Program-made: the position numbers and the translations under genes
Shown here: positions 1,171 to 14,193 of the stretch, in pieces
Layout of the letters: the number at the start of each line of letters is the position of its first letter
Numbering within the stretch: position 1 is the stretch's first letter
Source of the DNA: an uncultured virus (IMG/VR IMGVR_UViG_3300032294_001063)
Lineage: Duplodnaviria; Heunggongvirae; Uroviricota; Caudoviricetes
Virus record (IMG/VR): IMGVR_UViG_3300032294_001063
Length of the DNA stretch: 20,000 nucleotides
Reading direction: 5' to 3' (one strand)
The notes under the pieces: model-generated
The model's input: the letters and a program-made list of their open reading frames with translations, nothing else
What the model was told of the DNA's origin: nothing
Databases searched by the model: none

Positions 1171-1192
1171 ATTATATCATAAGGGGCTGACA
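1171..1192 (-). promoter_or_regulatory. PafBC/RecA-NDp-type promoter
   Basis: TGTCAG-CCCCTTATGA-TATAAT. Confidence 0.75.
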
Positions 1193-1229
1193 CTTGGCCA
1201 GCCCCTTACTTGTCCACCTACTGGACAGC

Positions 1230-1376
1230 TTACTTCTTTGGCTGTGGCTTCTCCGCCTGGAAGACCACGCCCTGTGCTGCAGCATCCTGCAGAGCCTTAT
1301 TAGCGGCGGACGAGAAACGTCCACGCTTTCCTACAGTAATTCCCTTTGCTGCTAGATATTCACGCTTTGTTGCCAT
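1230..1376 (-). CDS. Lsr2-like DNA-binding-domain-only protein (48 aa)
   Basis: MATKREYLAAKGITVGKRGRFSSAANKALQDA...; RGR AT-hook-like motif as in the Lsr2 C-domain; GAAAGGGG RBS; below ORF-track length cutoff. Confidence 0.65.
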   Translation of the reverse strand: MATKREYLAAKGITVGKRGRFSSAANKALQDAAAQGVVFQAEKPQPKK

Positions 1377-1408
1377 TTGTTTATCCCCTTTCAAGAGATG
1401 TTTTATTT

Positions 1409-1437
1409 ATTATATCGGATACCCACGATTTTGTAAA
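1409..1437 (-). promoter_or_regulatory. sigmaA-type promoter of the Lsr2-like gene
   Basis: TTTACA-N17-TATAAT. Confidence 0.6.
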
Positions 1438-1476
1438 TACCCCCGTAAGAGCTAAGATCAGCCCCTACGTTCCGCC

Positions 1477-1677
1477 TTATATATTAAGTTGTAAATCCAT
1501 TGATGTATCTTCATTTAGATATACATCTGTAGCTTCAATTACATCATTCGTTGCAATTGGATCCCATTCAGTTTCAGGTAATGAGTTTGCAATCTCCGCT
1601 GCCTCATATGGATCGGCAGCTTCAAGGATAGTATAATAGTTCTGATATTTATTTCCAAATACTCTATAAGCTGGCAA
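1477..1677 (-). CDS. hypothetical acidic protein
   Basis: 66 aa ORF overlapping the upstream gene in the operon. Confidence 0.7.
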   Translation of the reverse strand: MPAYRVFGNKYQNYYTILEAADPYEAAEIANSLPETEWDPIATNDVIEATDVYLNEDTSMDLQLNI

Positions 1678-1891
1678 GCTCTCTACTCTCCCATTCCGCT
1701 AATGTTCTAACAGTAAAGTCTCTACCTAGATTATAACAATATTTTACCGCCTTTGTCAATGACTCTGTCTCATATATTGGGATAGACATAGGTATATCAG
1801 TTTTATCATACACCTCAAACATATCCACCCCTCCAGGAGAACAACCGTAATTAACTTCCAGGATTTCTAAGCTTGGCTCATAATTGCTCAT
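1664..1891 (-). CDS. hypothetical protein (start MSNYEP)
   Basis: ATGA overlap with 1888-2040; AAGGGG RBS. Confidence 0.7.
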   Translation of the reverse strand: MSNYEPSLEILEVNYGCSPGGVDMFEVYDKTDIPMSIPIYETESLTKAVKYCYNLGRDFTVRTLAEWESRELASL

Positions 1892-2040
1892 TTTGTCCCC
1901 TTCTCTTTGGCCAACTTTTGCTGCTCTCGCCACCTCTGCCAATGATTAACTTGTGTAATCTCGACATCTACTTCAGGTGGGCATTCAAGAACATATGGCA
2001 CTCCGCCCACTATCTCTATCTTTACTTTATGCTTGCTCAT
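1888..2040 (-). CDS. hypothetical protein (50 aa, MSKHKVKIEI)
   Basis: Translated manually; fills the gap in a tightly coupled operon. Confidence 0.6.
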   Translation of the reverse strand: MSKHKVKIEIVGGVPYVLECPPEVDVEITQVNHWQRWREQQKLAKEKGTK

Positions 2041-2170
2041 CGCCTAGCCTATCTTTAATTAGTTTAGCAATGAGATTGTGTGCTTCAATGTTCTCTGTTT
2101 CTGACCCGCCCCACAAAAGTCTTTGTGCTTCTGCTAAGACCGAATCAACATATTGATCAGTTACCTTCAT
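2027..2170 (-). CDS. hypothetical protein (MKVTDQ)
   Basis: GAGGAAGAGG RBS before ATG 2170. Confidence 0.65.
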   Translation of the reverse strand: MKVTDQYVDSVLAEAQRLLWGGSETENIEAHNLIAKLIKDRLGDEQA

Positions 2171-2474
2171 CCTCTTCCTCCTCTTCTTCTTCAAACATTG
2201 TGTCGACAATGTATTCACGATTTAACATCCATTCAAGCACATCGTCTTGATGTTGTTCTGCCCCGTATTCCAGAGAGAACCCGTGGCCAGCCTCTACAGC
2301 CTCACAGAGGTTGTCCCACATCTGGTCCTGTGTCACGTTGGCCCTGTATGAATCGTCCTCTAAAATGCCATTAATTGTGGACCAAGTCCATAGCCAAACC
2401 AAGGAAAGGCCTAGGTCGGTGGTGTCAAGAATCTTTAAACATTCGTTTAGTTTATCTTTATCATCAGGCTTCAT
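2157..2474 (-). CDS. hypothetical acidic protein (MKPDDK)
   Basis: GGAG RBS; acidic tail. Confidence 0.75.
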   Translation of the reverse strand: MKPDDKDKLNECLKILDTTDLGLSLVWLWTWSTINGILEDDSYRANVTQDQMWDNLCEAVEAGHGFSLEYGAEQHQDDVLEWMLNREYIVDTMFEEEEEEEDEGN

Positions 2475-2739
2475 TACGTGCTCCAATCGCAAACGACAGT
2501 TGATAAGTTAGTTCATATAAGGCTACTAGAGTATCTAGGCGCCCTTCACATTCTGTACGGACCATAGAGTCCATTGCCTCTTCTGACTTTTCTTCTTGCT
2601 CTAATGCGCTTGCAAGGTCTTCCTCAGCAATCAACATTAGATTCTTTAGTTCGCCGTGCAAGATGTCGAGACCTGACACACCTGCATTAACCATACGTTG
2701 TAAATGGGGCGGGAGCCCAATATCTTCAACAGTCATCAT
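2464..2739 (-). CDS. hypothetical helical protein
   Basis: 91 aa ORF with AACGAAAGGA RBS. Confidence 0.75.
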   Translation of the reverse strand: MMTVEDIGLPPHLQRMVNAGVSGLDILHGELKNLMLIAEEDLASALEQEEKSEEAMDSMVRTECEGRLDTLVALYELTYQLSFAIGARNEA

Positions 2740-2930
2740 ACATATATCCTTTCGTTAGAAGCATTCATTATATCAGTAGCCACTGACAATAAATGCTCTG
2801 TTGCCATAATTTGTCCCTGGATATTAATCTTAGATTCAACATTCAAGTCTTTATCTAAGTCTTGGTTAAGACTAATTAAATGAAGTTTCATATACTCTAG
2901 AAAGTATGATGATTTAGTCTGTGTAGTCAA
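2736..2930 (-). CDS. hypothetical protein
   Basis: 64 aa ORF, TTG start after GGAGGG. Confidence 0.6.
   Translation of the reverse strand: MTTQTKSSYFLEYMKLHLISLNQDLDKDLNVESKINIQGQIMATEHLLSVATDIMNASNERIYV
2767..2788 (-). promoter_or_regulatory. PafBC/RecA-NDp-type promoter (within CDS)
   Basis: TGTCAG-TGGCTACTGA-TATAAT. Confidence 0.75.
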
Positions 2931-3096
2931 AGTAGCCCTCCGCCCATAGTCCCTGCATAAAACTAACAGCGTCCTCTAAGTCTTTAACTAAGGGGTCCTT
3001 GTTCATTAAATCTGACGGGGATCGAAGATAGAAAAGCTTTACATCGTGTATAGCATTAATCATTCTATTTAGATCTTCTTCTGTATAACCTAGCAT
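2914..3096 (-). CDS. hypothetical protein
   Basis: 60 aa ORF, GGAG RBS. Confidence 0.7.
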   Translation of the reverse strand: MLGYTEEDLNRMINAIHDVKLFYLRSPSDLMNKDPLVKDLEDAVSFMQGLWAEGYFDYTD

Positions 3097-3263
3097 AAAT
3101 CATACTCCATATCCCAAGATACATCAGGCCAACCTAAATCATATCTTGTACTATCTACTTTACCTAAATCGTCTAGGTGAGCATTAATTTTATTATGTGC
3201 TTCATTTTCATTATTAGCCATTACACTGCCTGCTAATTTAATTACAAAGTCATAACTTCTCAT
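3090..3263 (-). CDS. hypothetical protein (57 aa, MRSYDFVIKL)
   Basis: Translated manually; ATGA overlap with upstream ORF. Confidence 0.65.
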   Translation of the reverse strand: MRSYDFVIKLAGSVMANNENEAHNKINAHLDDLGKVDSTRYDLGWPDVSWDMEYDLC

Positions 3264-3475
3264 AAGTAATCCTCATCTCCCTCTTTTAGATTATAGAATT
3301 TATTAAATTCAGATTGAACAAACTTATCTCCTGACATTTCAGCAAATTGCTTATCTGCATAATATTGCCCCTCGTCAAGATTGCTATTAATCCAATCTTC
3401 AAGTAATTGTTCTGCTATATCTTGATAGCAAGCGTCAATTACCATTTGATTTACATCTTCTAAGAAACTAGCCAT
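3260..3475 (-). CDS. hypothetical acidic protein
   Basis: 71 aa ORF, GGAGG RBS. Confidence 0.75.
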   Translation of the reverse strand: MASFLEDVNQMVIDACYQDIAEQLLEDWINSNLDEGQYYADKQFAEMSGDKFVQSEFNKFYNLKEGDEDYL

Positions 3476-4259
3476 TTAGTGCTTCCTCCTGTGTGTATGT
3501 TTTTTCATTTGCTAATACTACACTATGGGTCTGACATTCTGCCATTTCTACTTCATTCTGCCAAGAGCCCTGCCCACATTCGGAGCAGAATTCACCGCAG
3601 TCATTTTCGCAGTAATCCAATGTATCAAAAGATTGACAAGCATAGCAACGATTCTCATATTCTAGAATAGTTTTAACATCACCACGGACAATCTCTAGTT
3701 CTCCGCCCCAACCTGTTTCTTCCTCATACTCTAATGTAAGAAGAGAGTTCGGAACAAGATTACTTAATTTAGTTAAGATAGTTACAGCAGGTGACCAAGC
3801 AGTTTCATATTTATAGACAAGCCAGTTGTCATCACCTTCTGATTTATATTCAAGTAATTCTGTATTTGAATACTCTTCGTCATCACGAACGGCTACATCC
3901 CACTTAGTTCCCCAGTTGGAGTTATTCCACGAATACCAATCTTTTTGAGTTTTAGCAAACTCAACAGACTTCTTAAACCAATTAGGGTCATTGGTGTCAA
4001 TACCACCACGAGAAGGTTGGCAAGCATATTCCTCATCAGTAATTCCGTCATCCTTATATGAGTGGATATTGTGGAAAGCAAAGACAGGATTATTATATTC
4101 AACCTGCTTAATTTTGGTGGGGAAACCCATAGAAGAGATATCACCCATACCATAGTTCTCCATTGCTAATGTGAATGGACGATTTAGTCTTTCTTTGATA
4201 GAATCAATTTCCTCTTTAGGTCCTTGAATAGTTAACGTGTTATAACACCAATTTGGCAT
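3468..4259 (-). CDS. YubB/Api92 (DUF1281)-like ferredoxin-fold protein with Cys-rich C-terminus
   Basis: MPNWCYN start, WYSWN..NWGTKWD and YETAWSP motifs characteristic of this family. Confidence 0.75.
   Translation of the reverse strand: MPNWCYNTLTIQGPKEEIDSIKERLNRPFTLAMENYGMGDISSMGFPTKIKQVEYNNPVFAFHNIHSYKDDGITDEEYACQPSRGGIDTNDPNWFKKSVEFAKTQKDWYSWNNSNWGTKWDVAVRDDEEYSNTELLEYKSEGDDNWLVYKYETAWSPAVTILTKLSNLVPNSLLTLEYEEETGWGGELEIVRGDVKTILEYENRCYACQSFDTLDYCENDCGEFCSECGQGSWQNEVEMAECQTHSVVLANEKTYTQEEALNG
3515..3536 (-). promoter_or_regulatory. PafBC/RecA-NDp-type promoter (within CDS)
   Basis: TGTCAG-ACCCATAGTG-TAGTAT. Confidence 0.65.
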
Positions 4260-4284
4260 TTTATTTCCTTTCGCTAATAACCCA

Positions 4285-4306
4285 ATTATATATTAGACCA
4301 CTGACA
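4285..4306 (-). promoter_or_regulatory. PafBC/RecA-NDp-type promoter
   Basis: TGTCAG-TGGTCTAATA-TATAAT. Confidence 0.8.
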
Positions 4307-4437
4307 TTTGTCTATGCAATATGGGTGTGTTTTACACCACATCCGATCAAAGCTGATCTCAATATGTGAAATTTCCAGGAATTAATATTGACATCCGTAA
4401 ATAGCATATGATACCCTCAGGTCTTTTGGGGGCCAAA

Positions 4438-4588
4438 CAAAAAATCCCTCAGCTAAGCTGAAGGATCTTAAGATAAGTAAGGCTGCTAGCAGAACGAAAG
4501 GAATTTAGTATACGCTGCTTTATTTAACGACTTGGGGGAACCCCTGGTAGCCGCACCATACTTCAATGAAAAGGCCCGCTAGGACCTA
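4438..4588 (-). ncRNA. candidate small RNA with anti-RBS sequence UUCCUUUCGUU
   Basis: Extended -10 TGATATAAT at 4594-4602, no ORF, 5' hairpin, intrinsic terminator 4439-4466. Confidence 0.5.
4439..4466 (-). terminator. intrinsic terminator
   Basis: ATCCTTCAGC-TTA-GCTGAGGGAT followed by a T run. Confidence 0.75.
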
Positions 4589-4614
4589 TTCATATTATAT
4601 CATATCTTAGTTAA

Positions 4615-5019
4615 CTAAACTGAGAGAGTAACGTCAGCATACTTCTCAACAAAGTTACTTAGGTCCATAGTAAAGAGCGCTTCATTGCTCATCCCATTAA
4701 CCTTGTTATCTAAGTCATTACGTGGAGCCTCTTCGTGAAGACTAAACGTTTGCTGTTGGAAATCGACAATAGCAATCTTGTGCTCATTATCGCCAATCTC
4801 ATTTACGTGCAGGCCCCATCCAGTTTCTGAATTCCATTCATCTGCTACCATTTGACTGATTGTAATACGTGTAGCATATGATGGGTCATTCCACCTAGGA
4901 CGTGCTTTAAACACTGCCTCTGCTAATCGAGCAAGCATTTGGTGGCCCGCCCAGTGCCCGTATAGTACAATTGTATTTCCATTCGGCTGTACGAATCCGA
5001 AGTTTGCTCTGTCTCCCAT
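4615..5019 (-). CDS. hypothetical phage protein (MGDR...LYGHW)
   Basis: 134 aa ORF with AAAAGGCGGA RBS. Confidence 0.8.
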   Translation of the reverse strand: MGDRANFGFVQPNGNTIVLYGHWAGHQMLARLAEAVFKARPRWNDPSYATRITISQMVADEWNSETGWGLHVNEIGDNEHKIAIVDFQQQTFSLHEEAPRNDLDNKVNGMSNEALFTMDLSNFVEKYADVTLSV

Positions 5020-5020
5020 T

Positions 5021-5230
5021 TTATTCCGCCTTTTCTAGTATAGGTGCTGCTTCTTCTTTTTTATTTAATTCTATCATCTCAAATGAGACCTTGTCAAGGG
5101 CATCCTTGTTTTTATTGTAGTGGTGGCCACAAAAGAACAGCTCACCATCTACTAGTTTAATTAGATACATAGCTTGAGCTGTACCGCATTGATCACAGCC
5201 AATCCATCTAGTTAGATCCTCAGATGTCAT
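5021..5230 (-). CDS. small Zn-binding protein (CxxC...FCGHH)
   Basis: CDQCG and GELFFCGHH motifs; start likely MTSEDL at 5230. Confidence 0.65.
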   Translation of the reverse strand: MTSEDLTRWIGCDQCGTAQAMYLIKLVDGELFFCGHHYNKNKDALDKVSFEMIELNKKEEAAPILEKAE

Positions 5231-5375
5231 AGTCAACAGTTCCAAATTCAATACGGTCTGCAATGTCATCATATACTTGGCCATCATCCTCAGATTCAGC
5301 CCACACACGAATATTTGCGACAATTACTTCACGAGCAAATTTGACGCCATCTTCAAAACCATCTTGGTAATCCAT
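5220..5375 (-). CDS. hypothetical protein (51 aa, MDYQDGFEDG)
   Basis: Translated manually; GGGAGA RBS. Confidence 0.65.
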   Translation of the reverse strand: MDYQDGFEDGVKFAREVIVANIRVWAESEDDGQVYDDIADRIEFGTVDYDI

Positions 5376-5376
5376 T

Positions 5377-5589
5377 TTATCTCCCTGTATATCCAGTCGG
5401 CTCGTATTCAGATACGTATGATTCTTTTAAATTATACTTATCTCTAATCCGACTTACCTTCTCAATGCTACCAGTTCCAATGTTGAATGTCAATGGTGAC
5501 AATGCCTGTGGGTCTAGCCCAATCATTTGTGCATCCCAATAGGCCATCTCCATAGATAGCCTATCAGGAGCAGTCAATTCAAAGTACAT
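5377..5589 (-). CDS. hypothetical protein
   Basis: 70 aa ORF, TAATG coupling. Confidence 0.75.
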   Translation of the reverse strand: MYFELTAPDRLSMEMAYWDAQMIGLDPQALSPLTFNIGTGSIEKVSRIRDKYNLKESYVSEYEPTGYTGR

Positions 5590-6242
5590 TATGCTTCCCT
5601 CACATAACAGATTTCAGTATCGACAATCTCAATGTTGCCACTCTGTGAATCAACAAAAAGATTATCTGTGATTTCTGTTTCGAAGTCATAGTCTTCAAGT
5701 ATGTTCAGGTCAATTGTTCCACTAACCTCGATGGTTGCGGTGAATTCAATTGTTCTAGTTAATTCAATGTTAAGCGCTTCAGCAATTGCACGAAGAGTAT
5801 CTTGGTCATCTGAATCAGCATATGCTTCAGTGATAATATCTTTAACTGTATTAATGTTGGATTCAAATACCCCAACACGCTTTTGTGCTTGACGTCCATT
5901 GTGTAGGTCCCACTCAATGCTGGCAACCTTATCAGTTGCATATTCTGCATCTGAATAACCACGGATTACTTTGTATGTAACCAATAGGTTAGAGTTATAT
6001 GTATCAGGAACTACAGATGTTGTTGTTTCTGTTGTCATTTTATTTCCTTTCGTTTCTGTTATAGGTGTATCTGTATACGGTATTGTAGCATCTTCCACTG
6101 ACAATAATGTGCAATTGGAGTTACATCGGCATGTGAGGTCCATCACACCCGCTGGCCATCCATATCCATCTTTAATTGTATATTCAATTAATGCGTCACA
6201 GTCTCCTGTGCACACCCAGGTATACTTTTGATATTTGGTCAT
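5589..6242 (-). CDS. hypothetical protein with Cys-rich N-terminal extension; internal start at 6038
   Basis: Leaderless ATG 6242 is 6 nt after TATAAT; second in-frame ATG 6038 has an AACGAAAGGAA RBS and its own promoter. Confidence 0.7.
   Translation of the reverse strand: MTKYQKYTWVCTGDCDALIEYTIKDGYGWPAGVMDLTCRCNSNCTLLSVEDATIPYTDTPITETKGNKMTTETTTSVVPDTYNSNLLVTYKVIRGYSDAEYATDKVASIEWDLHNGRQAQKRVGVFESNINTVKDIITEAYADSDDQDTLRAIAEALNIELTRTIEFTATIEVSGTIDLNILEDYDFETEITDNLFVDSQSGNIEIVDTEICYVREA
6082..6103 (-). promoter_or_regulatory. PafBC/RecA-NDp-type promoter (internal)
   Basis: TGTCAG-TGGAAGATGC-TACAAT. Confidence 0.7.
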
Positions 6243-6248
6243 GCGAGT

Positions 6249-6270
6249 ATTATAGCGGTACCCACTGACA
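6249..6270 (-). promoter_or_regulatory. PafBC/RecA-NDp-type promoter (leaderless transcript)
   Basis: TGTCAG-TGGGTACCGC-TATAAT. Confidence 0.8.
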
Positions 6271-6367
6271 TATACAAGCTTTTCAGGGTGTTTTTTATGT
6301 GATCCGTAACACAGAAATTTCGCCTTCAAGGTTGCGGGCATCTCACATATTGATATTAAATTCTTAG

Positions 6368-6441
6368 CGATCCATAACGGACTTGAACCGTCGACCTCTA
6401 CCGTGACAGGGTAGCGCTCTAACCAACTGAGCTAATGGACC
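6368..6441 (-). tRNA. tRNA-Asp(GTC)
   Basis: Cloverleaf GGTCCAT/ATGGATC, anticodon arm CTACC-CTGTCAC-GGTAG, T-loop TTCAAGT; no encoded CCA. Confidence 0.95.
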
Positions 6442-6448
6442 AAATGAA

Positions 6449-6472
6449 AACGGGGGAGTTTCCTCCCCCGTT
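6449..6472 (-). terminator. hairpin/terminator after the DUF932 gene
   Basis: AACGGGGGAG-GAAA-CTCCCCCGTT then TTCATTT. Confidence 0.7.
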
Positions 6473-6485
6473 GCAAATCATTTTG

Positions 6486-7490
6486 TTAGAATGATTTTAC
6501 CAACTTGAGAATTTTATTTTTCTCTGCGGTAAGAATTGGGTCAAACCCTGATGCACCAGCCATTAGTGTTTCAGAATTTCCACGACCTGAACGATAATAA
6601 TCAAGGCGCTCAGTTAGTGCATTGAACGCACCCCACTTTGTTCCCTTGATTGTAGCGTTAGTAGGTGAGTTGTGATACAAATCGTCAATGAGAACAACTT
6701 TGTTTTCCCACTTTTTCATTGCACCCTTCAAATCTTTATCAGGCTTTGGATAAAGAGTTGTAATCAACTTTGAAAATTCAGCATCGGTAATTGCTTGAGA
6801 ATAAAGAGATTGAGCCTCTTTTTCAAACTCATCGAAATACCCAAGAGCAAGCCCAAGAGTTTCACGAGCAACTTGAATGCGACCTTCAACAGATTGTGTG
6901 TGTCGAATCTTGAAAGATTGCTTAGCATTCTTCATTGCAAGATTCAATGTGTTTTGGCAAACTACACGAACAGGTGTAACAGCAGCCTGAACAGCAACTG
7001 AGCCATCGTGTGATGTCCAAACAATTAGATAAAGTTTTGTCTGGTCATTAGCGCCTTGTGGGTCAATAACCATTGTGCGAGGAATATCCACAGTTCCGAA
7101 AACAACTTTACCCTTTTTCAATGAGCCAGCAGATTCCCAACGGCAATCAGCATTAGCATCGTGAATTGCATCTGCAAACTGAAATAGTTCTTCATTCTGC
7201 ACAGGCTTGTAACGCTTACCAACAGTAGCAAGAACATCGGTTCCGCCATTGAATGGATTTGTGCGAACAACTAGAGATGATTCTGAAACATCGTTCCAAG
7301 ATTCGTCAATGTGATTTGTGATTGGTGATAAGCGAACATTCCAATTCGCTAACTTTGCCTCTTCAAGCATTGTTGCGGTTGTAACTTCCTCATCTTTTGT
7401 GAAGATACGATTTGCAAGGTTGTGCCAAGCAGGTGCGCCACGAAGAGCAAATGCAACTTCGCCGTTTTCGACTTCGAGATTGTGAGCCAT
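6486..7490 (-). CDS. DUF932 (TIGR03299-type phage/plasmid) protein
   Basis: MAH..., PAWH.L, Y.PVQN, ESAGSL..G, SHDGS, TPVRVVCQNTL, IRHT motifs. Confidence 0.9.
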   Translation of the reverse strand: MAHNLEVENGEVAFALRGAPAWHNLANRIFTKDEEVTTATMLEEAKLANWNVRLSPITNHIDESWNDVSESSLVVRTNPFNGGTDVLATVGKRYKPVQNEELFQFADAIHDANADCRWESAGSLKKGKVVFGTVDIPRTMVIDPQGANDQTKLYLIVWTSHDGSVAVQAAVTPVRVVCQNTLNLAMKNAKQSFKIRHTQSVEGRIQVARETLGLALGYFDEFEKEAQSLYSQAITDAEFSKLITTLYPKPDKDLKGAMKKWENKVVLIDDLYHNSPTNATIKGTKWGAFNALTERLDYYRSGRGNSETLMAGASGFDPILTAEKNKILKLVKSF

Positions 7491-7702: not shown

Positions 7703-7707
7703 AGTCT

Positions 7708-7947
7708 TTAGATTAGTTTAGTTAGTTCAGTTTTCTTAGGAATAAATTCCATTGGTAAAAATAAAGCAGTTGTTTTCTTTTTCTTTAGATTGTCATAAAC
7801 ATAAGCACGGATATTTCCATCAAACTTACGCAGATTACTAAATACTAATTCGGTTAGATATTCTTTATCTACGCCTTGCTCTGAATAAATAGTCAAATCA
7901 TTTGCTTTGTTTTCGTCATAGATTTCTACACGATAACGGTTTTTCAT
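7708..7947 (-). CDS. hypothetical protein
   Basis: 79 aa ORF, AACAAAGGAA RBS. Confidence 0.75.
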   Translation of the reverse strand: MKNRYRVEIYDENKANDLTIYSEQGVDKEYLTELVFSNLRKFDGNIRAYVYDNLKKKKTTALFLPMEFIPKKTELTKLI

Positions 7948-8016
7948 TTTGTTCCTTTGTTAGTAGGGATATAAATTATAACATTGGGGGCTAGATTTTG
8001 TCTAGCCCCCATAAGA

Positions 8017-8199
8017 TTATGCGCCGATTTTTACCATAGCCCAACGCATACCCTTTTCAGTATTCAATCCTAGTTTAGTTAGATTAGGACGAATAGAAAC
8101 GATTTCTGCGATTGTTCCTGTAATACCCGACTTGCCTGTGGTAAATACATCTCCCTTGCGGTAGAAGCGACCCTTAGCAGTATCTAGTATTGGTGCCAT
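8017..8199 (-). CDS. small beta-rich protein, paralog of 8749-8904
   Basis: TT.KSGITG...RW motif; AACGAAAGGAA RBS. Confidence 0.75.
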   Translation of the reverse strand: MAPILDTAKGRFYRKGDVFTTGKSGITGTIAEIVSIRPNLTKLGLNTEKGMRWAMVKIGA

Positions 8200-8263
8200 T
8201 TGTTTTTCCTTTCGTTAGTAGGTGGGTGAGCAGTTTATAGACTTGCTCAGGTCATTAGATTAT

Positions 8264-8680
8264 TTAGAGATACTTAGCAATTTGCTTCATTGTAGAAGCA
8301 TTTACTGTTTCCTCATCTGTCATCTTTAGAATTGTAAGGGCATTTGTGATGTCCTCTTTCATCTCACGATAAGTGTGCTGATGGATAATCTCAAAATCCT
8401 TTTCAGGCTCTTTAGGAAAATCAGTTTCTTTCGTGATGATGTCAAAATCAACATTGAGAGTGTTGTTCCATTGACGATAGTTTGTGCGAAGGTTCTCAGC
8501 CTTTGCGAAGTTTGCGATAGCCCACTTGCCAATTTCCTTCTGCCACTTTTCACGGGCTTTCTGAAACTTTGCTTCGTTTGCTTCTTGTGAGGCATAGTCT
8601 TTTTCTAGTGTTGCTAGACGATTTTCTAGTGCCTTGATTACCTTTGGTGTTGCCACCTTTACTGTGATTGCTCTTGACAT
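8264..8680 (-). CDS. hypothetical protein
   Basis: 138 aa ORF, AACGAAAGGG RBS. Confidence 0.8.
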   Translation of the reverse strand: MSRAITVKVATPKVIKALENRLATLEKDYASQEANEAKFQKAREKWQKEIGKWAIANFAKAENLRTNYRQWNNTLNVDFDIITKETDFPKEPEKDFEIIHQHTYREMKEDITNALTILKMTDEETVNASTMKQIAKYL

Positions 8681-8710
8681 TATTTCCCTTTCGTTCGGTT
8701 GTTTGGTTGT

Positions 8711-8732
8711 ATTATAGCAGGGGGGTCTGACA
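8711..8732 (-). promoter_or_regulatory. PafBC/RecA-NDp-type promoter
   Basis: TGTCAG-ACCCCCCTGC-TATAAT. Confidence 0.75.
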
Positions 8733-8748
8733 ACCCCCCTGCCATTTA

Positions 8749-8904
8749 CTACTTAGCAGATACGCTTGTCCAGCGTTCTTGTCCCTCTACATCTAGTAGC
8801 ACACGATTTACACCGCTTGGGTGATTGTCAATAGCCTTGACAATTCCTGTGATACCGCTTGTAGTTGTTGTGTAGGTCTGCCCTACTTCTAGCATTGTTG
8901 CCAT
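8749..8904 (-). CDS. small beta-rich protein (51 aa, MATMLEVGQTY)
   Basis: Translated manually; AACGAAAGGAA RBS; similar to 8017-8199. Confidence 0.75.
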   Translation of the reverse strand: MATMLEVGQTYTTTTSGITGIVKAIDNHPSGVNRVLLDVEGQERWTSVSAK

Positions 8905-8930
8905 TTTTGTTTCCTTTCGTTTAGGGGTTT

Positions 8931-8952
8931 ATTATACAGGGGAGGTCTGACA
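8931..8952 (-). promoter_or_regulatory. PafBC/RecA-NDp-type promoter
   Basis: TGTCAG-ACCTCCCCTG-TATAAT. Confidence 0.75.
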
Positions 8953-8996
8953 TTTCCCACCCTAATCTCATTATTTGAGAAAGTTATTGTGTGATA

Positions 8997-9260
8997 CTAA
9001 TCACACTCAGGTAGCCACGCATCTAAGTGGTGCTGTTCGATTATAGCCGATGCGGGTGCAAACTTACCTCCACGATAAGACACGCCTTCAGGCATTTCGA
9101 TCAACCTGTTATAGTCCTCATCATAGTATGCGTCAATAGCCTCGATGCAAGGCTCGACCATTGAAAGAGGAACGGGAGGGTAATGATTACCCTGTAAGTG
9201 CATAGCAATACCTTGTTCTAAATCTAATTCTGCAAAATCTAATGCTGTGCTGTATCCCAT
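8997..9260 (-). CDS. hypothetical phage protein (HL..NHYPPVP)
   Basis: 87 aa ORF, GAAGGA RBS. Confidence 0.8.
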   Translation of the reverse strand: MGYSTALDFAELDLEQGIAMHLQGNHYPPVPLSMVEPCIEAIDAYYDEDYNRLIEMPEGVSYRGGKFAPASAIIEQHHLDAWLPECD

Positions 9261-9262
9261 TA

Positions 9263-9487
9263 TTAGTTTCCTTCCGCAATAGTTACTTCAGCCCAAGTGT
9301 TATTTTCATTAGCAAGTGGTAATACATTAGACATACCAAGTGCGTGTAGTGTTGCTTCTTTGCACATTTGCTGAATTGACTTCTCATCAAGAGCAATTAG
9401 CGCAGGCAATAAATTTGCAGGAATTTTATCCAAGTCAATAATAGCCTCGAATACAACTGTGTGTGGAACTTTCATTAGATTAGACAT
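9263..9487 (-). CDS. hypothetical protein
   Basis: 74 aa ORF, AACGAAAGGT RBS. Confidence 0.75.
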   Translation of the reverse strand: MSNLMKVPHTVVFEAIIDLDKIPANLLPALIALDEKSIQQMCKEATLHALGMSNVLPLANENNTWAEVTIAEGN

Positions 9488-9515
9488 AACTTACCTTTCG
9501 TTGTTGGATGAGAGT

Positions 9516-9537
9516 ATTTTACCGCAGGCCACCGACA
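9516..9537 (-). promoter_or_regulatory. PafBC/RecA-NDp-type promoter
   Basis: TGTCGG-TGGCCTGCGG-TAAAAT. Confidence 0.8.
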
Positions 9538-9554
9538 TTTGCTAATCAATTCTC

Positions 9555-9650
9555 GGCGTGTCGCAGCTTTTGTGATATTTCTCACAAAATCCAGGGTTAT
9601 CCACAACTAAGTCGTAAGCCTGTGGAAAACCCCGCAGTATTTGCGGGCCC
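9555..9650. promoter_or_regulatory. Intergenic module: GGCGTGTCG, CRP-type site, DnaA-box pair, CCCGCA/TGCGGG
   Basis: 9555-9563; TGTGA-TATTTC-TCACA 9571-9586; TTATCCACA 9597, TGTGGAAAA 9621. Confidence 0.65.
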
Positions 9651-9651
9651 T

Positions 9652-9765
9652 TTACTCCTCCTGGTCCCAGATATCAGGATCCACTTCTTTTAAATATTTT
9701 ATTGCAGCTTCTCTCTGATCATCATCACCCATTACCGTGGCCATTAATGCATTAAAGTACTCCAT
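9652..9765 (-). CDS. hypothetical peptide (37 aa)
   Basis: AAGGAG RBS; MEYFNALMATV... Confidence 0.55.
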   Translation of the reverse strand: MEYFNALMATVMGDDDQREAAIKYLKEVDPDIWDQEE

Positions 9766-9777
9766 GTTTATTTCTCC

Positions 9778-10497
9778 TTATTTTTTAGTTGCGCTAAATC
9801 GAATGTCTGCTTTACCATACACACACAATCCACAAGATACACAAGCAGAACCTGCATTGCTAATTAGTGGAATACTTTTCATATTCTCAGGACATTTAGC
9901 GCCAGGCTTGCCAGTTAATTCTTTCATTGTGTTTTCGGTTACGGCGAATGTCTTTCCTAGATAAGCAAGGCGGACGCCAGAATTCTTTTTTAACTCGTGG
10001 CCCGTTTCTTTATTTTCATCATCGGTAGAATAGTAAAGAGATAGATTAGAGACATCCTTAAGAATAAGCGCCGCAGACTTTACTCGTGTGTATACCCAGA
10101 ATTGAACATCGGGATGATTAGAGATAGCAGTCTTCCAGGCATATGTATAAGTATCATTAAAGAAATCGCCGTCCCAGTGGATACGGAATAATTTAGGAGC
10201 GTCTTTCTTTTCACAATCATTGACAAAGTCAACAATCATCTCATCAAGCAATAGTAACATTGCGTCCATATCTGCATTACGTAGGAGCTCCCAGTTATGC
10301 AATAGATTAGTTTTTACGCCCTTGAATAATTTTTCAAGCTTGCCCGCATAGCACACGCTTTCGCAAATACTAGTGGCGCCAGGGCAAGAATATTCCTTGC
10401 CTGCAGGTAATCCGAAAGTGTTAGCAATTGCAGCCTGCTTGCCATTTTTTGTGACAAGGTTAGCCACCTTTCTATCATTAGAACGTTTAAGTTTCAT
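9778..10497 (-). CDS. Gp88-like Fe-S (radical-SAM-related) phage protein
   Basis: CPGATSICESVCYA cluster, FRIHWDGDF, FWVYTR, C-terminal CVSCGLC; leaderless ATG 10497 is 7 nt after TATAAT. Confidence 0.8.
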   Translation of the reverse strand: MKLKRSNDRKVANLVTKNGKQAAIANTFGLPAGKEYSCPGATSICESVCYAGKLEKLFKGVKTNLLHNWELLRNADMDAMLLLLDEMIVDFVNDCEKKDAPKLFRIHWDGDFFNDTYTYAWKTAISNHPDVQFWVYTRVKSAALILKDVSNLSLYYSTDDENKETGHELKKNSGVRLAYLGKTFAVTENTMKELTGKPGAKCPENMKSIPLISNAGSACVSCGLCVYGKADIRFSATKK

Positions 10498-10504
10498 AGG
10501 CGTA

Positions 10505-10526
10505 ATTATAGCGGTTAGATCTGACA
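10505..10526 (-). promoter_or_regulatory. PafBC/RecA-NDp-type promoter (leaderless transcript)
   Basis: TGTCAG-ATCTAACCGC-TATAAT. Confidence 0.75.
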
Positions 10527-10528
10527 TA

Positions 10529-10738
10529 TTAGTAATCCTCATCCATTCCAAATCCAGCGGAAGCAAGAGCGTCGGAATCAGCCCAGCCAGTTAGTTCATA
10601 GAATTCCATTTCTTCAGCATCATAGCATTCAGCGCAGGTATAATCATCACCATAGATTTCATATTCTTCAATTGAATCGAAAGTTTCTTGAGCACCACAA
10701 ATTTCATAGTTCAAGCAAGCGACAGTAAATAGTTCCAT
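10529..10738 (-). CDS. small acidic Cys-containing protein
   Basis: 69 aa ORF, AACGAAAGGT RBS. Confidence 0.75.
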   Translation of the reverse strand: MELFTVACLNYEICGAQETFDSIEEYEIYGDDYTCAECYDAEEMEFYELTGWADSDALASAGFGMDEDY

Positions 10739-10768
10739 TAGTTGGACCTTTCGTTAGTAGATAGTGGA

Positions 10769-10790
10769 ATTATAGCAGACTAGACTGACA
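10769..10790 (-). promoter_or_regulatory. PafBC/RecA-NDp-type promoter
   Basis: TGTCAG-TCTAGTCTGC-TATAAT. Confidence 0.75.
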
Positions 10791-10882
10791 TTTTTTGCAA
10801 CCCGCCCCAGAATCTAGGGTGTTTTATATCACACCCGTAACGACACGCCCGACTCCGCAGCTCTGCGGGCATTTGTCGACAA

Positions 10883-11014
10883 TTACGAATCTAATTTATT
10901 TTTATGTTTGATCTTGCGTGTGTATTTTTTTTTATTGCGAACAGGTTGCGCCGCATTACTGCGACGCAATTCCTGAATGCGTTTTACTTTATCTCGAAGT
11001 GAAGTTTGGAACAT
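10883..11014 (-). CDS. small highly basic protein, ArfA-like tail
   Basis: MFQTSLRDKVKRIQELRRSNAAQPVRNKKKYTRKIKHKNKLDS, translated manually. Confidence 0.55.
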   Translation of the reverse strand: MFQTSLRDKVKRIQELRRSNAAQPVRNKKKYTRKIKHKNKLDS

Positions 11015-11180
11015 TATATCCACTCGCTTCGTGAAATCGTTTTACATCAAATCGCTCATTATCTTTTGCGAACATCTCTGCAAAATCGTGAACTGTTTTA
11101 GAAAAAACAGCGGGGTGAACTTTATTACTGAGATACTTTAGAATTTCAGCGGTTGCAATATAATCTTTGCGTGTCATCAT
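10989..11180 (-). CDS. hypothetical phage protein (MTRKDY...N.RFD..RF)
   Basis: 63 aa ORF, GAGG RBS. Confidence 0.8.
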   Translation of the reverse strand: MMTRKDYIATAEILKYLSNKVHPAVFSKTVHDFAEMFAKDNERFDVKRFHEASGYNVPNFTSR

Positions 11181-11380
11181 TTTACTACGACCTCTCCTGT
11201 GCGATAAAATAATTTAGTGTAGCATTTTCCAGTTGGTGTAAATAAATTTACAGTTGAGTATTCGTTAGCCATTCCCCAATCGGTAAATAAGAAAAAGTTT
11301 TCCCACGCACCATATTCGCTTTCATATTCGGCAGACCAATGAGGAGCGTTGCTATCATAAGCGCAAGTTAGTTTATACAT
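11177..11380 (-). CDS. hypothetical protein
   Basis: 67 aa ORF coupled to neighbours. Confidence 0.7.
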   Translation of the reverse strand: MYKLTCAYDSNAPHWSAEYESEYGAWENFFLFTDWGMANEYSTVNLFTPTGKCYTKLFYRTGEVVVK

Positions 11381-11515
11381 TTAGATATTCCAATCTTCTA
11401 AGGCGCACTCACACGCTTCTACATCATAATTATTTTCATCTCCCCAAAATAGGAAGCCAGCACCACCACACTCATCACAAGCAACGGCAATTATTTCTTT
11501 TACATCTTTTACCAT
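11381..11515 (-). CDS. small Zn-finger-like protein (CDECGG...CEC)
   Basis: ATG 11515 with AACGAAAGGAA RBS. Confidence 0.7.
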   Translation of the reverse strand: MVKDVKEIIAVACDECGGAGFLFWGDENNYDVEACECALEDWNI

Positions 11516-11543
11516 TTTAGTTTTCCTTTCGTTTGTTATCGGT

Positions 11544-11565
11544 ATTGTATCAGTTGCCACTGACA
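11544..11565 (-). promoter_or_regulatory. PafBC/RecA-NDp-type promoter
   Basis: TGTCAG-TGGCAACTGA-TACAAT. Confidence 0.75.
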
Positions 11566-11696
11566 ATTGGCAAAACTGGAGAGCCCTCTAGTTCTAAGCC
11601 GATTTCAAGTGTTAGCAATTCATCGGGAGTGGCTTCGGATAAATCTACCCAGCCCGCACCCTCATCATTCATTCTAAAAATTTCAATGTATCCCAT
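11550..11696 (-). CDS. hypothetical protein (48 aa, MGYIEIFRMN)
   Basis: Translated manually; GAAAGGAA RBS. Confidence 0.65.
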   Translation of the reverse strand: MGYIEIFRMNDEGAGWVDLSEATPDELLTLEIGLELEGSPVLPIVSGN

Positions 11697-11788
11697 TTAT
11701 AGTTTTCCTTTCATAAAAATTTGGTGAGAGTTCTTACTTACGACATTGGGCGAGAACACTCTCTAAACTGCCCCTGTTTCGATTTTAT

Positions 11789-12004
11789 CTAATCGGTAGT
11801 TTTTACCGCTACTGTGCGATAAGTTCTGCGACCAAAATTGTTGTATCCGCTATTTGGCATAACCTCTACCAAATAAGTTTCACAACCATCATACCAAATT
11901 GCTTTAGGGTGCTTTTCGGCAGATACGATTTCACCTTGTAAGGTGCGTGAGTAGTAGTTAGTTCCTACAAGTAGGTTTTCGATTGTATAGACATTTGCTG
12001 ACAT
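11789..12004 (-). CDS. hypothetical protein (MSANVYTIE)
   Basis: AACGAAAGGTGG RBS before ATG 12004. Confidence 0.75.
   Translation of the reverse strand: MSANVYTIENLLVGTNYYSRTLQGEIVSAEKHPKAIWYDGCETYLVEVMPNSGYNNFGRRTYRTVAVKTTD
11982..12003 (-). promoter_or_regulatory. PafBC/RecA-NDp-type promoter overlapping the start of a CDS
   Basis: TGTCAG-CAAATGTCTA-TACAAT. Confidence 0.55.
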
Positions 12005-12038
12005 AAGTTGCCACCTTTCGTTTGTTGCTATGTCTGAA

Positions 12039-12060
12039 ATTATACACGACCCCACTGACA
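12039..12060 (-). promoter_or_regulatory. PafBC/RecA-NDp-type promoter
   Basis: TGTCAG-TGGGGTCGTG-TATAAT. Confidence 0.8.
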
Positions 12061-12109
12061 TTTTTCTACTTACTAGCCAGTAATTCCAAATAGTAAGACG
12101 CTCAATCGG

Positions 12110-12270
12110 TGTGTTCTTCATCACATCAAAATGTCCGATTTGTCTGTCAAATCGACACGCCGCAGAATTCAGGGATTTTTATAACAAATCCGTAACGACA
12201 CGCCCGACGCCGCAGCTTTTGCGGGCCTGTCAAATCGACACGCCGTTGTGTCGATGTGAAATGTATCACA
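12110..12270. repeat. Intergenic module with three CGACACGCC copies and two CRP-type sites
   Basis: TGTCAAATCGACACGCCG at 12145 and 12228 (again at 12860); CGACACGCC 12196; CRP-type 12110 and 12255. Confidence 0.75.
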
Positions 12271-12273
12271 CGA

Positions 12274-12363
12274 TTATTCGTGGATACACTTATATTCGAT
12301 CTCGTGACCGAATTCATCTACGAGTTCTTCGTAGATTTCGTCTAAATAATCTAAATAATCCAT
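12274..12363 (-). CDS. acidic peptide (29 aa)
   Basis: AGAAAGGAA RBS, TAATG coupling. Confidence 0.5.
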   Translation of the reverse strand: MDYLDYLDEIYEELVDEFGHEIEYKCIHE

Positions 12364-12467
12364 TATTTATTTTCCTTTCTAATAGTAGCGGATAGAACCG
12401 CAAGGGCTTCAGCCTTGCTTGCTTCACGTTGTTGCTCAACGTGTTTTTTGAATTCATCTAAATTCAT
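12363..12467 (-). CDS. hypothetical peptide (34 aa, MNLDEFKKHV)
   Basis: TAATG coupling at both ends. Confidence 0.55.
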   Translation of the reverse strand: MNLDEFKKHVEQQREASKAEALAVLSATIRKENK

Positions 12468-12655
12468 TATGCTAACCAACTTTCTTTGGTATATGCTAAC
12501 CACTCACCAAGAGTCATAAGACCCTTGTATTCATTACAATTTCCGCAGAAAAAACTTCCTGCGTAGTCTGAGCAAAAAACGCAGACGATTTGATTTGCTT
12601 CATCAGCAGAAACGTTTTCGAGAGTAATCTCTCTGATTTGATTTAGTGTAGTCAT
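12467..12655 (-). CDS. small Zn-binding protein (CVFC...CGNC.EYKG)
   Basis: AGAAAGGTGG RBS. Confidence 0.7.
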   Translation of the reverse strand: MTTLNQIREITLENVSADEANQIVCVFCSDYAGSFFCGNCNEYKGLMTLGEWLAYTKESWLA

Positions 12656-12691
12656 TTTGACCACCTTTCTTTTTTTATCTTGATACCTAGT

Positions 12692-12713
12692 ATCCTAACA
12701 TAGACCACTGACA
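12692..12713 (-). promoter_or_regulatory. PafBC/RecA-NDp-type promoter
   Basis: TGTCAG-TGGTCTATGT-TAGGAT. Confidence 0.75.
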
Positions 12714-12730
12714 TTTTGACCTGTTTTTCG

Positions 12731-12877
12731 GGCGTGTCGCAAAACTATTTTTGTGATTTAGGTCATGTGGATAACTTGAGCTCAAAATTTGGGGGATTTC
12801 CACACCTGTTCATAAACCTGTGGATAACTCCCGCAAAAGACTGCGGGCCGATCTGACTTTGTCAAATCGACACGCCG
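12731..12877. promoter_or_regulatory. Intergenic module: GACAC repeats, CRP-like site, three DnaA-box-like 9-mers
   Basis: GGCGTGTCG 12731; TGTGGATAA 12766 and 12819; ATTTCCACA 12796; CCCGCA/TGCGGG 12830-12847. Confidence 0.65.
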
Positions 12878-12885
12878 TTATTTAT

Positions 12886-13083
12886 TTATTCATTTTCTAA
12901 TTCTGCTAAATAATCTTCGTGCTCTACTAATCCAATCGCAAACGCAACGGGATCGCAACACTCTAAGATTTCGGCGGGTGTAAAAGTTGAGTAACCAATT
13001 TTTACAGTAGGATAAATATCATTTAGAAAATCTATAAAGCTTTCTTTGATTTCTAAATCTTTTTCAAATTGTGATTTATTCAT
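12886..13083 (-). CDS. hypothetical protein
   Basis: 65 aa ORF, GGGGGA RBS. Confidence 0.75.
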   Translation of the reverse strand: MNKSQFEKDLEIKESFIDFLNDIYPTVKIGYSTFTPAEILECCDPVAFAIGLVEHEDYLAELENE

Positions 13084-13189
13084 TTAGTCCCCCATTTTTT
13101 ATGTCTTTGATTACGGCGATTAGTAGCGGGATAGTAACTCCCGCTAGTAGTAATTGGACGGCGGTAGTTAGTAGGCGATTAGTAGTCAT
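13076..13189 (-). CDS. small membrane peptide (37 aa)
   Basis: Hydrophobic LLTTAVQLLLAGVTIPLLIAVI; TAATG coupling. Confidence 0.55.
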   Translation of the reverse strand: MTTNRLLTTAVQLLLAGVTIPLLIAVIKDIKNGGLNE

Positions 13190-13344
13190 TACTTATTCTT
13201 CTTTCTCTTATAAATCTTATAGGCAATAGTTAGGGCGGTGATAATAGCGATAGTGTGCCAAGGTAGATAGATAGCCCCTAAGAAACTATCTAACTCTAAT
13301 CCGTAGTCGCTAGTTATGTATAACTCTAGTCCATCTGTAATCAT
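13189..13344 (-). CDS. small membrane protein (51 aa)
   Basis: TAATG coupling; TM segment followed by a basic tail. Confidence 0.6.
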   Translation of the reverse strand: MITDGLELYITSDYGLELDSFLGAIYLPWHTIAIITALTIAYKIYKRKKNK

Positions 13345-13514
13345 TAGTCGTTCCAATCTAGTGTAAGTGATTTAGATAGTTCATCTTCATCATATTCATC
13401 AGAGCCAAACTCTATTAGACCTTCTTCTAGAGCCTTGTTATACATTTCTTCTTCATCAAGATAAACATAAGCATCTTTTATATCTTCTTGAATTGTATCC
13501 CATTTAGTCATCAT
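13344..13514 (-). CDS. acidic hypothetical protein (56 aa)
   Basis: TAATG coupling; GAGG RBS. Confidence 0.6.
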   Translation of the reverse strand: MMTKWDTIQEDIKDAYVYLDEEEMYNKALEEGLIEFGSDEYDEDELSKSLTLDWND

Positions 13515-13678
13515 TACTTTACCTCTACTTTCATTACATTAGCGGAAAACTTTACTTTCTTTCCTAAGTCGCTAGCATTTAGCGAGGCGATTAGGTGGTC
13601 AATAGCCTTTATATCGTGGGCTACATTGTCAATACTTAGTAGGCGAGAGCCTTGCCAAATTGAGTAAGTGATAGTCAT
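13514..13678 (-). CDS. hypothetical protein (54 aa, MTITYSIWQG)
   Basis: AACGAAAGAAG leader; follows promoter 13722-13743. Confidence 0.65.
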   Translation of the reverse strand: MTITYSIWQGSRLLSIDNVAHDIKAIDHLIASLNASDLGKKVKFSANVMKVEVK

Positions 13679-13721
13679 TATCTGTTCTTCTTTCGTTAGT
13701 AGTTATTTTGTTATGTCTGTA

Positions 13722-13743
13722 AGACTACACTAAGGGGCTGACA
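13722..13743 (-). promoter_or_regulatory. PafBC/RecA-NDp-type promoter
   Basis: TGTCAG-CCCCTTAGTG-TAGTCT. Confidence 0.7.
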
Positions 13744-13782
13744 TTTACAACCTTAGCGGGGGTGTGTCGTGTGTGAGTTACC

Positions 13783-13953
13783 TCACACTAGACTAGGGGA
13801 CTTATCGTAGGTGTATCCTACGCCTGTCTCATAGTATGCGAACATCTGTTCGGTCTTATGAGTTCTATCTACTTTACAGATAGTGTCCCAACTATCGCCT
13901 GTCCATTGACAGGATAGGCATTTACTTACTAGATGAGATAGTGTTTTAGTCAT
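13783..13953 (-). CDS. small Cys/His protein (56 aa)
   Basis: AAGGAG RBS, TAATG coupling; CLSC...C....H. Confidence 0.6.
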   Translation of the reverse strand: MTKTLSHLVSKCLSCQWTGDSWDTICKVDRTHKTEQMFAYYETGVGYTYDKSPSLV

Positions 13954-14123
13954 TACTTAGACTCCTTATCTATACAGTTGATACAGTAGCAAGCCTTGCT
14001 ACTTAGTAGGTCTCGCAAGAGAGCCTTTCTAGTGTAGGCATTTAATCCGTATGAAGATTTTACTCCACCATTGTGGAAGTCGTGCACGATTGTGCTATAC
14101 AGAGTTTCTGTTAGTTGAGTCAT
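13953..14123 (-). CDS. hypothetical protein (56 aa, MTQLTETLYS)
   Basis: AGAAAGGAG RBS; first gene of the minus-strand array. Confidence 0.65.
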   Translation of the reverse strand: MTQLTETLYSTIVHDFHNGGVKSSYGLNAYTRKALLRDLLSSKACYCINCIDKESK

Positions 14124-14171
14124 TATCTGACTCCTTTCTTAGTAAGACTTTCTTACTTTCTTTATACTATA

Positions 14172-14193
14172 AGCCTAGCAGGGGGGACTGACA
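14172..14193 (-). promoter_or_regulatory. PafBC/RecA-NDp-type promoter
   Basis: TGTCAG-TCCCCCCTGC-TAGGCT. Confidence 0.7.

Follow-up and report, generated by a model that had tools for sequence, protein, structure and literature searches.

Which protein reads the repeated promoter of a small-gene array in an uncultured tailed phage? The question is raised by the IMG/VR record IMGVR_UViG_3300032294_001063 (Caudoviricetes), of which we analyzed a stretch of 20,000 nucleotides, called the window in the following. The array occupies positions 736..14123 of the minus strand, a span of 13.4 kb split into short cassettes, and consists of about 40 co-oriented open reading frames (ORFs) of 44–334 aa, six of them with a family match. 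Its promoters combine a TGTC(A/G)G box with a -10 element at a fixed distance, and this arrangement resembles the bacterial promoters served by PafBC, the WYL-domain heterodimer of the DNA damage response. Judging from the sequence, we give an even chance to the reading that PafBC of the host recognizes the array through this box.

A pattern search for TGTCRG-N10-TANNNT returned 18 matches in the window, all on the minus strand. The chance level, computed from 200 dinucleotide-preserving shuffles of the window, was 0.40 on average (standard deviation 0.61, maximum 3), and 18 or more matches were reached in 0 of the 200. The initial annotation had listed 18 minus-strand sites with invariant spacing in a phage array of small genes and had the series stop near 14200; all coordinates, the strand and the spacing were reproduced, the block is supported as an array of small genes, and the window contains no match right of 14193. 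The geometry is strict. The gene strand has 22 TGTCRG words (21 TGTCAG and 1 TGTCGG), 18 of which are followed by TAnnnT at exactly 10 nt, while the other spacings from N4 to N17 gave 0–5 sites each (N9, 0; N11, 0; N5, 5). Across the whole 20 kb of the plus strand, TGTCAG is absent and TGTCGG occurs once. The association holds also when the box is not forced: among 81 gene-strand hexamers of type TA[TCG][AG]AT, 14 have TGTCAG 16 nt upstream, and other hexamers recur at most twice. A start codon lies 6–62 nt downstream of 17 of the 18 sites, mostly with the conserved ribosome site ACGAAAGG before the ATG. An A-rich tract precedes the box in the array promoters, and the box is followed by T and G in 11 and 9, respectively, of the 18 sites. 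We considered the box as a -35 element of the opposite strand, as CTGACA resembles TTGACA, and rejected this, finding no conserved -10 where one would be required; positions -24 to -17 of the aligned window sites, which bear on such an antisense reading, carry little information.

From right to left on the minus strand, the series begins with the promoter of the first cassette at 14172..14193 (TGTCAG-N10-TAGGCT), serving the gene that starts at 14123, and continues with 13722..13743 (TGTCAG-N10-TAGTCT; ATG at 13678), 12692..12713 (TGTCAGTGG...TAGGAT; ATG at 12655) and 12039..12060 (TGTCAGTGG...TATAAT; ATG at 12004). The match at 11982..12003 is probably due to chance and not a separate promoter, since it is situated 57 nt downstream of the 12060 promoter, over the ATG of the gene 11792–12004. 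Then follow 11544..11565 (TGTCAGTGG...TACAAT; ATG at 11515), 10769..10790 (ATG at 10738), 10505..10526 in front of the GP88 gene, 9516..9537 (ATG at 9487), which is the sole TGTCGG variant (TGTCGGTGG...TAAAAT), 8931..8952 (ATG at 8904) and 8711..8732 (ATG at 8680), where a GGGGGGT/ACCCCCC inverted repeat encloses the box in its loop. Next is the promoter of the DUF932 gene at 7521..7542. Downstream of it come 6249..6270 and 6082..6103, the promoter of the DUF1281_C (Api92-like) gene at 4285..4306, 3515..3536 in the 3′-terminal part of the gene before it (ATG at 3475), 2767..2788 (TGTCAGTGG...TGATATAAT; ATG at 2739) and 1171..1192, which serves the last array gene (736–1149).

Two degenerate remnants of the motif proposed in the initial annotation were inspected as well. 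The one near 7975 is a conventional promoter with ATCTAG where the box would stand, and the one near 12382 is a doubtful TTGCGG-N10-TACTAT within coding sequence.

At two sites the start codon is exceptionally close: an in-frame ATG lies 7 nt past the -10 of the 10526 promoter (ATG at 10497) and another 6 nt past that of the 6270 promoter (ATG at 6242). The pair suggests leaderless mRNAs, which are common in actinobacteria, with transcription putatively starting about 7 nt after the -10. For GP88 a leaderless mRNA is probable, since the Pfam match of the protein begins at the very residue encoded by this close-lying ATG at 10497. The ORF 5592–6242 holds two promoters of the PafBC type, that at 6270 with the ATG at 6242 and, inside the ORF, that at 6103 with an internal in-frame ATG at 6038 behind the strong ribosome site ACGAAAGG. 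This layout suggests a long (217 aa) and a short (149 aa) isoform of the predicted protein.

To see which of these features are retained in evolution, we turned to related phages. IMG/VR contains 282 related contigs, several of about 115 kb, of which we kept 80 with 89–96% protein identity; five records with a CheckV-estimated completeness of 100% form the set of complete relatives (G001–G005). The strict motif was found in 85 of 85 related loci with 7–18 copies each, almost always on the gene strand. In G001, a genome of 115,479 bp, 18 of the 19 copies lie on one strand within a 13.5-kb gene block (15,604–29,074) and one elsewhere, the array occupying the strand opposite to that of nearly all other genes. 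Outside the array, 48 intergenic stretches contained 17 strong -10-like hexamers, none of them preceded by the box (0 of 17) and a few accompanied by conventional -35 elements. In 59 distinct orthologous sequences of the DUF932 promoter, the box, the TG and the TATA are invariant and the spacer varies. This invariance among orthologues and the restriction to the array imply that the box is under selection and that the promoter class is confined to the island.

The same data bear on the idea that the motif was merely carried along as one promoter cassette was duplicated again and again, and that nothing reads it. The cassettes are indeed partly paralogous, as seen in the GITG-motif proteins encoded at 8752–8904 and 8020–8199. 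Duplication alone is nevertheless highly improbable: the spacers and flanks of the 18 paralogous window sites have fully diverged while the box, the TG and the -10 have stayed fixed, as they have among the 59 orthologous sequences, and TGTCAG is missing from the opposite strand over the whole 20 kb.

For a finer description of the element, we collected 858 distinct sites of the family, forcing only TGTC-N12-TAnnnT. Positions 5 and 6 of the box were AG in 728 sites and GG in 70 (R-G in 798), with the remaining 60 distributed over 11 dinucleotides. The bases right after the box were T in 67% and G in 54%, agreeing with the TGTCRgtg form quoted in the initial annotation. The extended -10 was prominent: 80% of the sites have G at -14, and 66% have T at -15. 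Over positions -10 to -4 ahead of the box the information never exceeded 0.25 bit, and thus there is no conserved -35.

These properties agree with what is described for PafBC. According to PMC8635444, the in vivo consensus of PafBC is a 22-nt tGTCgg(N10)tA(N3)T with the box at -23 to -28; the helix-turn-helix (HTH) of PafB reads the two guanines of the GTC triplet, SigA reads the -10, and there is no -35. The term "sigma adaptation" is used for such PafBC-dependent (RecA-NDp) promoters of Mycobacterium and other actinobacteria in PMC8635444, PMC8223512 and PMC6789036, and RecA-NDp promoters are reported for S. coelicolor recA and SCO6735 in PMC5087735. On this point the initial annotation is supported, as the array promoters show all parts of the published architecture, with the element at -26, a distance of exactly 10 nt from it to TAnnnT, and no conservation of a -35.

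Most cassettes open with a hybrid promoter, in which an A-rich stretch is followed by the TGTC(A/G)G(TG) box at approximately -28 to -23, a 10-nt spacer usually ending in TGn and a TAtAAT -10; behind it comes either a short leader with the ACGAAAGG ribosome site or a leaderless ATG. In the most likely mechanism, the housekeeping RNA polymerase holoenzyme of the host would recognize the -10, and a WYL-domain PafBC heterodimer, with which the host would have to be equipped, would recognize the box and replace the -35 contact by sigma adaptation. PafBC is activated by single-stranded DNA, whose appearance in the cell would then raise expression of the array; phage DNA entry, end processing, replication and ultraviolet (UV) damage are possible sources of the single strands.

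The initial annotation had left room for a WYL homolog of the phage itself as the reader. We found none: the WYL domain was detected in 0 of the five complete relatives and in 0 of the 52 window ORFs. HTH_11 exceeded the cut-off in 0 of the five, with two subthreshold matches (E 0.003 and 0.02), and HTH_Crp_2 was found in 0 of the five. Family searches of the 40 array proteins gave no DNA-binding family except for an Lsr2-like piece, and no sigma factor or RNA polymerase was found among 104 of the 108 G001 ORFs of at least 90 aa, the four straddling locus boundaries being skipped. The phage family thus encodes no recognizable reader.

A reader of the phage could still belong to no recognizable family. 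A phage-encoded or virion-delivered activator might bridge the TGTC box to the sigma factor in the manner of MotA/AsiA, which would make the array a delayed class that a product of the few conventional promoters turns on. Such promoter-like sites exist inside the array, at least three to five of them on the minus strand: 7975..8004 (TAGACA-18-TATAAT with TG before the -10 and no TGTCAG), before the 79-aa gene 7711–7947; 5068..5097 (TTGACA-18-TAGAAT), before the gene 4618–5019; 1409..1437 (TTTACA-17-TATAAT), before the Lsr2-like gene; and two more inside ORFs. That around 34 of the 40 array proteins are without a family also counts in its favor. It is counted against this scenario that no HTH, WYL, Crp-type or sigma-like protein was found in the array or in the five complete relatives, novel folds being possible, and that six to eight positions of the box, the R at position 5 among them, agree with the host-type consensus.

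The cultured relatives bear on the activator in both directions. The closest ones, by DUF932 and GP88, are the Streptomyces phages of cluster BE, which are distant kin. In NootNoot, the homologous array lies within a terminal repeat of approximately 10.8 kb, and TGTC-N12-TAGANT occurs 15 times on one strand (7 per repeat copy and 1 elsewhere in the 131 kb) and 0 times on the other, in comparison with 0 and 1 for the reversed-pattern control. The NootNoot box is TGTCCY. Mandalore, isolated on S. venezuelae (Mandalore preprint), has five sites with the same offset and a TAGA(C/G)T -10, four with TGTCTC and one with TGTCGG. In both phages, a clear TTG -35 precedes the box. The offset of TGTC-N12-TAnnnT is therefore common to the Streptomyces relatives, and positions 5 and 6 are specific to the lineage (AG, CY and TC), as one would expect of a phage factor coevolving with its site; the palindrome upstream of the promoter is likewise lineage specific in the present family, NootNoot and Mandalore. 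The common TGTC by itself would fit the GTC core of PafBC and a lineage-specific phage factor equally. On the other side, the NootNoot array would meet host factors only, on the assumption that the terminal repeat enters first. Weighing these points, we regard an activator supplied by the phage as unlikely.

The extended -10 opens yet another explanation, in which the promoters are constitutive, served by the housekeeping sigma alone, and TGTCAG is an operator or spacer element for shutoff or modulation. The strong conservation of TGn speaks for it, as does the pairing of TGTC with a full -35 and -10 in the cultured relatives, where polymerase should therefore need no help. The interval between the -35 and the -10 is, moreover, a classical position for a repressor. 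A nonpalindromic 6-bp word held at a single distance (N10, 18 sites; N9 and N11, none) is instead the signature of a factor docked on the polymerase, and the -35 is not conserved in the present phage family. We consider the operator quite improbable.

Several further points weigh against PafBC as the reader. Extended -10 promoters can fire with neither a -35 nor an activator, and the TGn of the phage sites could allow such independent firing; 6 of the 18 sites also have a -35 match of 4–5 of 6 positions at 17–18 nt. The conventional promoters of the array could provide a phage product that acts as the reader, and since the cultured kin retain only TGTC, together with a TTG -35, the element may be specific to the lineage and have a phage factor as its reader. 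The box promoters do not serve DNA repair genes. No LexA box was found beside the promoters, the single match with two mismatches comparing with 0.36 expected. In five control phages (ChrisnMich, Phantasmagoria, Trina, MeganTheeKilla and Atuin), cultured actinophages with DUF932 of which two infect M. smegmatis, TGTC-N12-TAnnnT was not enriched in comparison with the reversed pattern. A phage that delays its first genes until a damage signal arrives would also be taking a risk. Finally, the PafBC consensus may not be that of the host of this phage, and in S. venezuelae a published motif search found no M. smegmatis PafBC motif (PMC9380542).

The array contains a second repeated element. The CRP-type palindrome TGTGA-N6-TCACA has nine sites in the window, seven of them perfect, in comparison with 0.58 expected, and in G001 all 11 of its 11 sites are inside the array. 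Eight of the nine window palindromes lie upstream of a box, and the distances between the palindrome center and the box are 46.5 bp for 14232..14247 (box 14193), 36.5 for 13772..13787 (box 13743), 57.5 for 12110..12125 (one mismatch; box 12060), 41.5 for 9571..9586 (box 9537), 45.5 for 8990..9005 (box 8952), 46.5 for 7581..7596 (box 7542), 35.5 for 6298..6313 (one mismatch; box 6270) and 36.5 for 6132..6147 (box 6103). The ninth, a perfect palindrome at 12255..12270, has no adjoining promoter of the PafBC type. In the 59 orthologous sequences of the DUF932 promoter, both half-sites of the palindrome at 7581..7596 are nearly invariant. Among 852 distinct promoter contexts of the family, which are variants of perhaps 20–30 orthologous promoters and not independent events, 516 have a palindrome within 100 bp, and the distances peak at 26.5 bp (34 contexts), 35.5–36.5 (134), 45.5–46.5 (153) and 56.5–57.5 (75), with a separate class at 41.5 (50).

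The palindromes are present at about half of the promoters and, judging from their 10-bp register, probably add a second input from a single helix face. A Crp/GlxR-type protein of the host is the simplest guess for the putative reader. The palindromes of the Streptomyces relatives argue for caution here, being lineage specific: between the hairpin and the promoter, NootNoot has TGTCSGG-N-CCSGACA (7 copies in 10 kb, 739–8271) and Mandalore has TGCGCC-N-GGCGCA (9350–14700). The combined scheme, in which host PafBC and a CRP-type regulator in helical register license about 40 small takeover or antidefense genes throughout this family of lake phages, is somewhat less probable than not in our estimation.

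Both putative readers presuppose a suitable host, which is probably an actinobacterium. This assignment rests on the WhiB protein of G001, the Lsr2-like and GP88 proteins, the cultured kin and the GAAAGG ribosome sites; for such a host, the GC content of the phage DNA is unusually low. Megablast against cultured phages found no nucleotide similarity; at the protein level, further matches come from phages of Mycobacterium, Microbacterium, Arthrobacter, Gordonia and Rhodococcus. The more specific proposal of a mycobacterial or corynebacterial host is unsupported: the GC content of the phage is 38–39%, and a scan of public genome contigs with the RecA of a relative returned three loci, all of them contigs of the same phage family (RecA 73–89% identical) in unrelated metagenome-assembled genomes (MAGs), one labelled Bacteroidia and the other cyanobacterium; this is probably misbinning and no evidence of the host. 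The AhpC of a relative leads to Pseudomonadota and virus clusters in the protein atlas and is uninformative on the host. Besides WhiB, G001 (GC content 38.1%) encodes RecA, the DNA polymerase III alpha subunit, DnaB, primase, and tail and capsid proteins. It also has at least 14 oxygenases of the 2OG-Fe(II)/JmjC/Asp-Arg-hydroxylase type, AhpC, a CMD-family protein, thioredoxin, Hsp20 and a pyrimidine-dimer glycosylase, and this load of oxidative-stress and UV-repair functions is unusual.

What the array does can be judged from its genes and their order. The proteins are mostly acidic, with isoelectric points of 4.1–5, and the families that could be assigned, all on the minus strand, are few. 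The 334-aa DUF932/TIGR03299 protein (6489..7490) is 52% identical to gp2/gp3 of the Streptomyces BE-cluster phages, TIGR03299 being the only assignment added by NCBIfam. The cysteine-rich GP88-family protein (PF17338; 9781..10497) shares 53–57% identity with proteins of Streptomyces and Mycobacterium phages; it has a Cys cluster close to either terminus and is possibly a metal or Fe-S protein. Domain matches identify a 263-aa DUF1281_C protein with an Api92-like ferredoxin-like domain (3471..4259) and a DUF7455 protein (5024..5323), and a basic 48-aa protein (1233..1376) matches the PHROG Lsr2-like DNA-bridging family in part, over profile positions 6–46 of 188. The size and acidity of the proteins and the synteny with the terminal-repeat arrays of the BE cluster suggest an early or takeover block; the homologous NootNoot array lies in the terminal repeat and, as here, next to an HNH gene.

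The small proteins encoded at 8752–8904 and 8020–8199, mentioned above as paralogues, share the motif T(S/G)GITG...W and have separate promoters, and one of them matches phrog_16275. The window has four tRNA genes, tRNA-Asp(GTC) inside the array (6367..6441, minus strand) and, on the plus strand, a run of three for Asn, Met and Arg (17280–17508); an Rfam search of the window found tRNAs only. Between the gene 4618–5019 and the 4306 promoter, about 300 nt are free of ORFs, with a TGATATAAT extended -10 at the start and two terminator-like hairpins (4587–4572 and 4469–4441); the stretch 4441–4615 has no Rfam match and may encode a small RNA. Just beyond the last array gene, in an AT-rich noncoding stretch of about 500 nt, are three imperfect 50-nt direct repeats (425–474, 482–531 and 615–664; 66–78% identical), which may be iterons of an origin or belong to a terminal or packaging region.

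PafBC promoters are otherwise known only from bacterial chromosomes, as a LexA-independent DNA damage regulon. Should the host protein prove to read the array, the phage would be the first known viral user of sigma adaptation, and the DNA damage sensor of the cell would double as the ignition switch of the phage. It would constitute a new route for coupling a viral program to a host stress sensor, one that requires no phage-encoded reader, and the family would offer a natural set of hundreds of -26/-10 hybrid promoter variants for studying the requirements of PafBC and polymerase. In the part of the literature listings on PafBC and phages that was covered, we found no account of phage promoters of this type, and the words "promoter" and "motif" occur 0 times in the Mandalore preprint. 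The cultured Streptomyces relatives keep TGTC at this offset, and with them the question can be taken to the bench.

Among known systems, the arrays of the BE-cluster phages (Boydwoodruffvirinae: NootNoot and Mandalore) share homologous DUF932, GP88 and Lsr2-like genes and the organization into leftward small-gene cassettes bounded by an HNH gene. A BE-cluster cassette consists of a hairpin, a palindrome and then a promoter with TGTC 12 nt before TAGACT. These phages differ from the present family in their clear TTG -35, in CY or TC at positions 5 and 6, in the other palindromes, in a GC content of 49% and in being cultured. The palindromes of the present family recall class I CRP-dependent promoters and Crp/GlxR sites, with perfect TGTGA-N6-TCACA upstream of the core in a 10-bp register. 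Assuming that transcription starts 7 nt after the -10, their centers fall at about -54.5, -64.5, -74.5 and -84.5, approximately 3 bp off the positions of E. coli class I sites, and the 41.5-bp class differs by being out of register.

The sites of SARP activators are direct heptamer repeats, and the phage promoters differ in showing none. The likeness lies in SARP/AfsR activation of Streptomyces, where the activator of an actinobacterium makes up for an imperfect -35; the discussion of PMC11804915 describes it as resembling sigma adaptation. The middle promoters of T4 also form a class of phage promoters, with a box that lies between the -35 and the -10, at a fixed distance from the latter, and stands in for the -35. 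The MotA box of T4 lies at about -30, and T4 encodes its own reader, whereas no candidate reader was found in the present phage family. The comparison of PafBC with the "sigma appropriation" of T4 MotA/AsiA is made in PMC8635444. From the PafBC promoters themselves, the phage sites differ by being on a phage, at 17–18 per 13 kb, before small genes lacking an assigned function instead of repair genes, and by their strong extended -10 with TGn and the A-rich stretch ahead of the box. What the two share is the GTC core at -28 to -23, R at position 5, the 10 nt to TAnnnT and the lack of a conserved -35.

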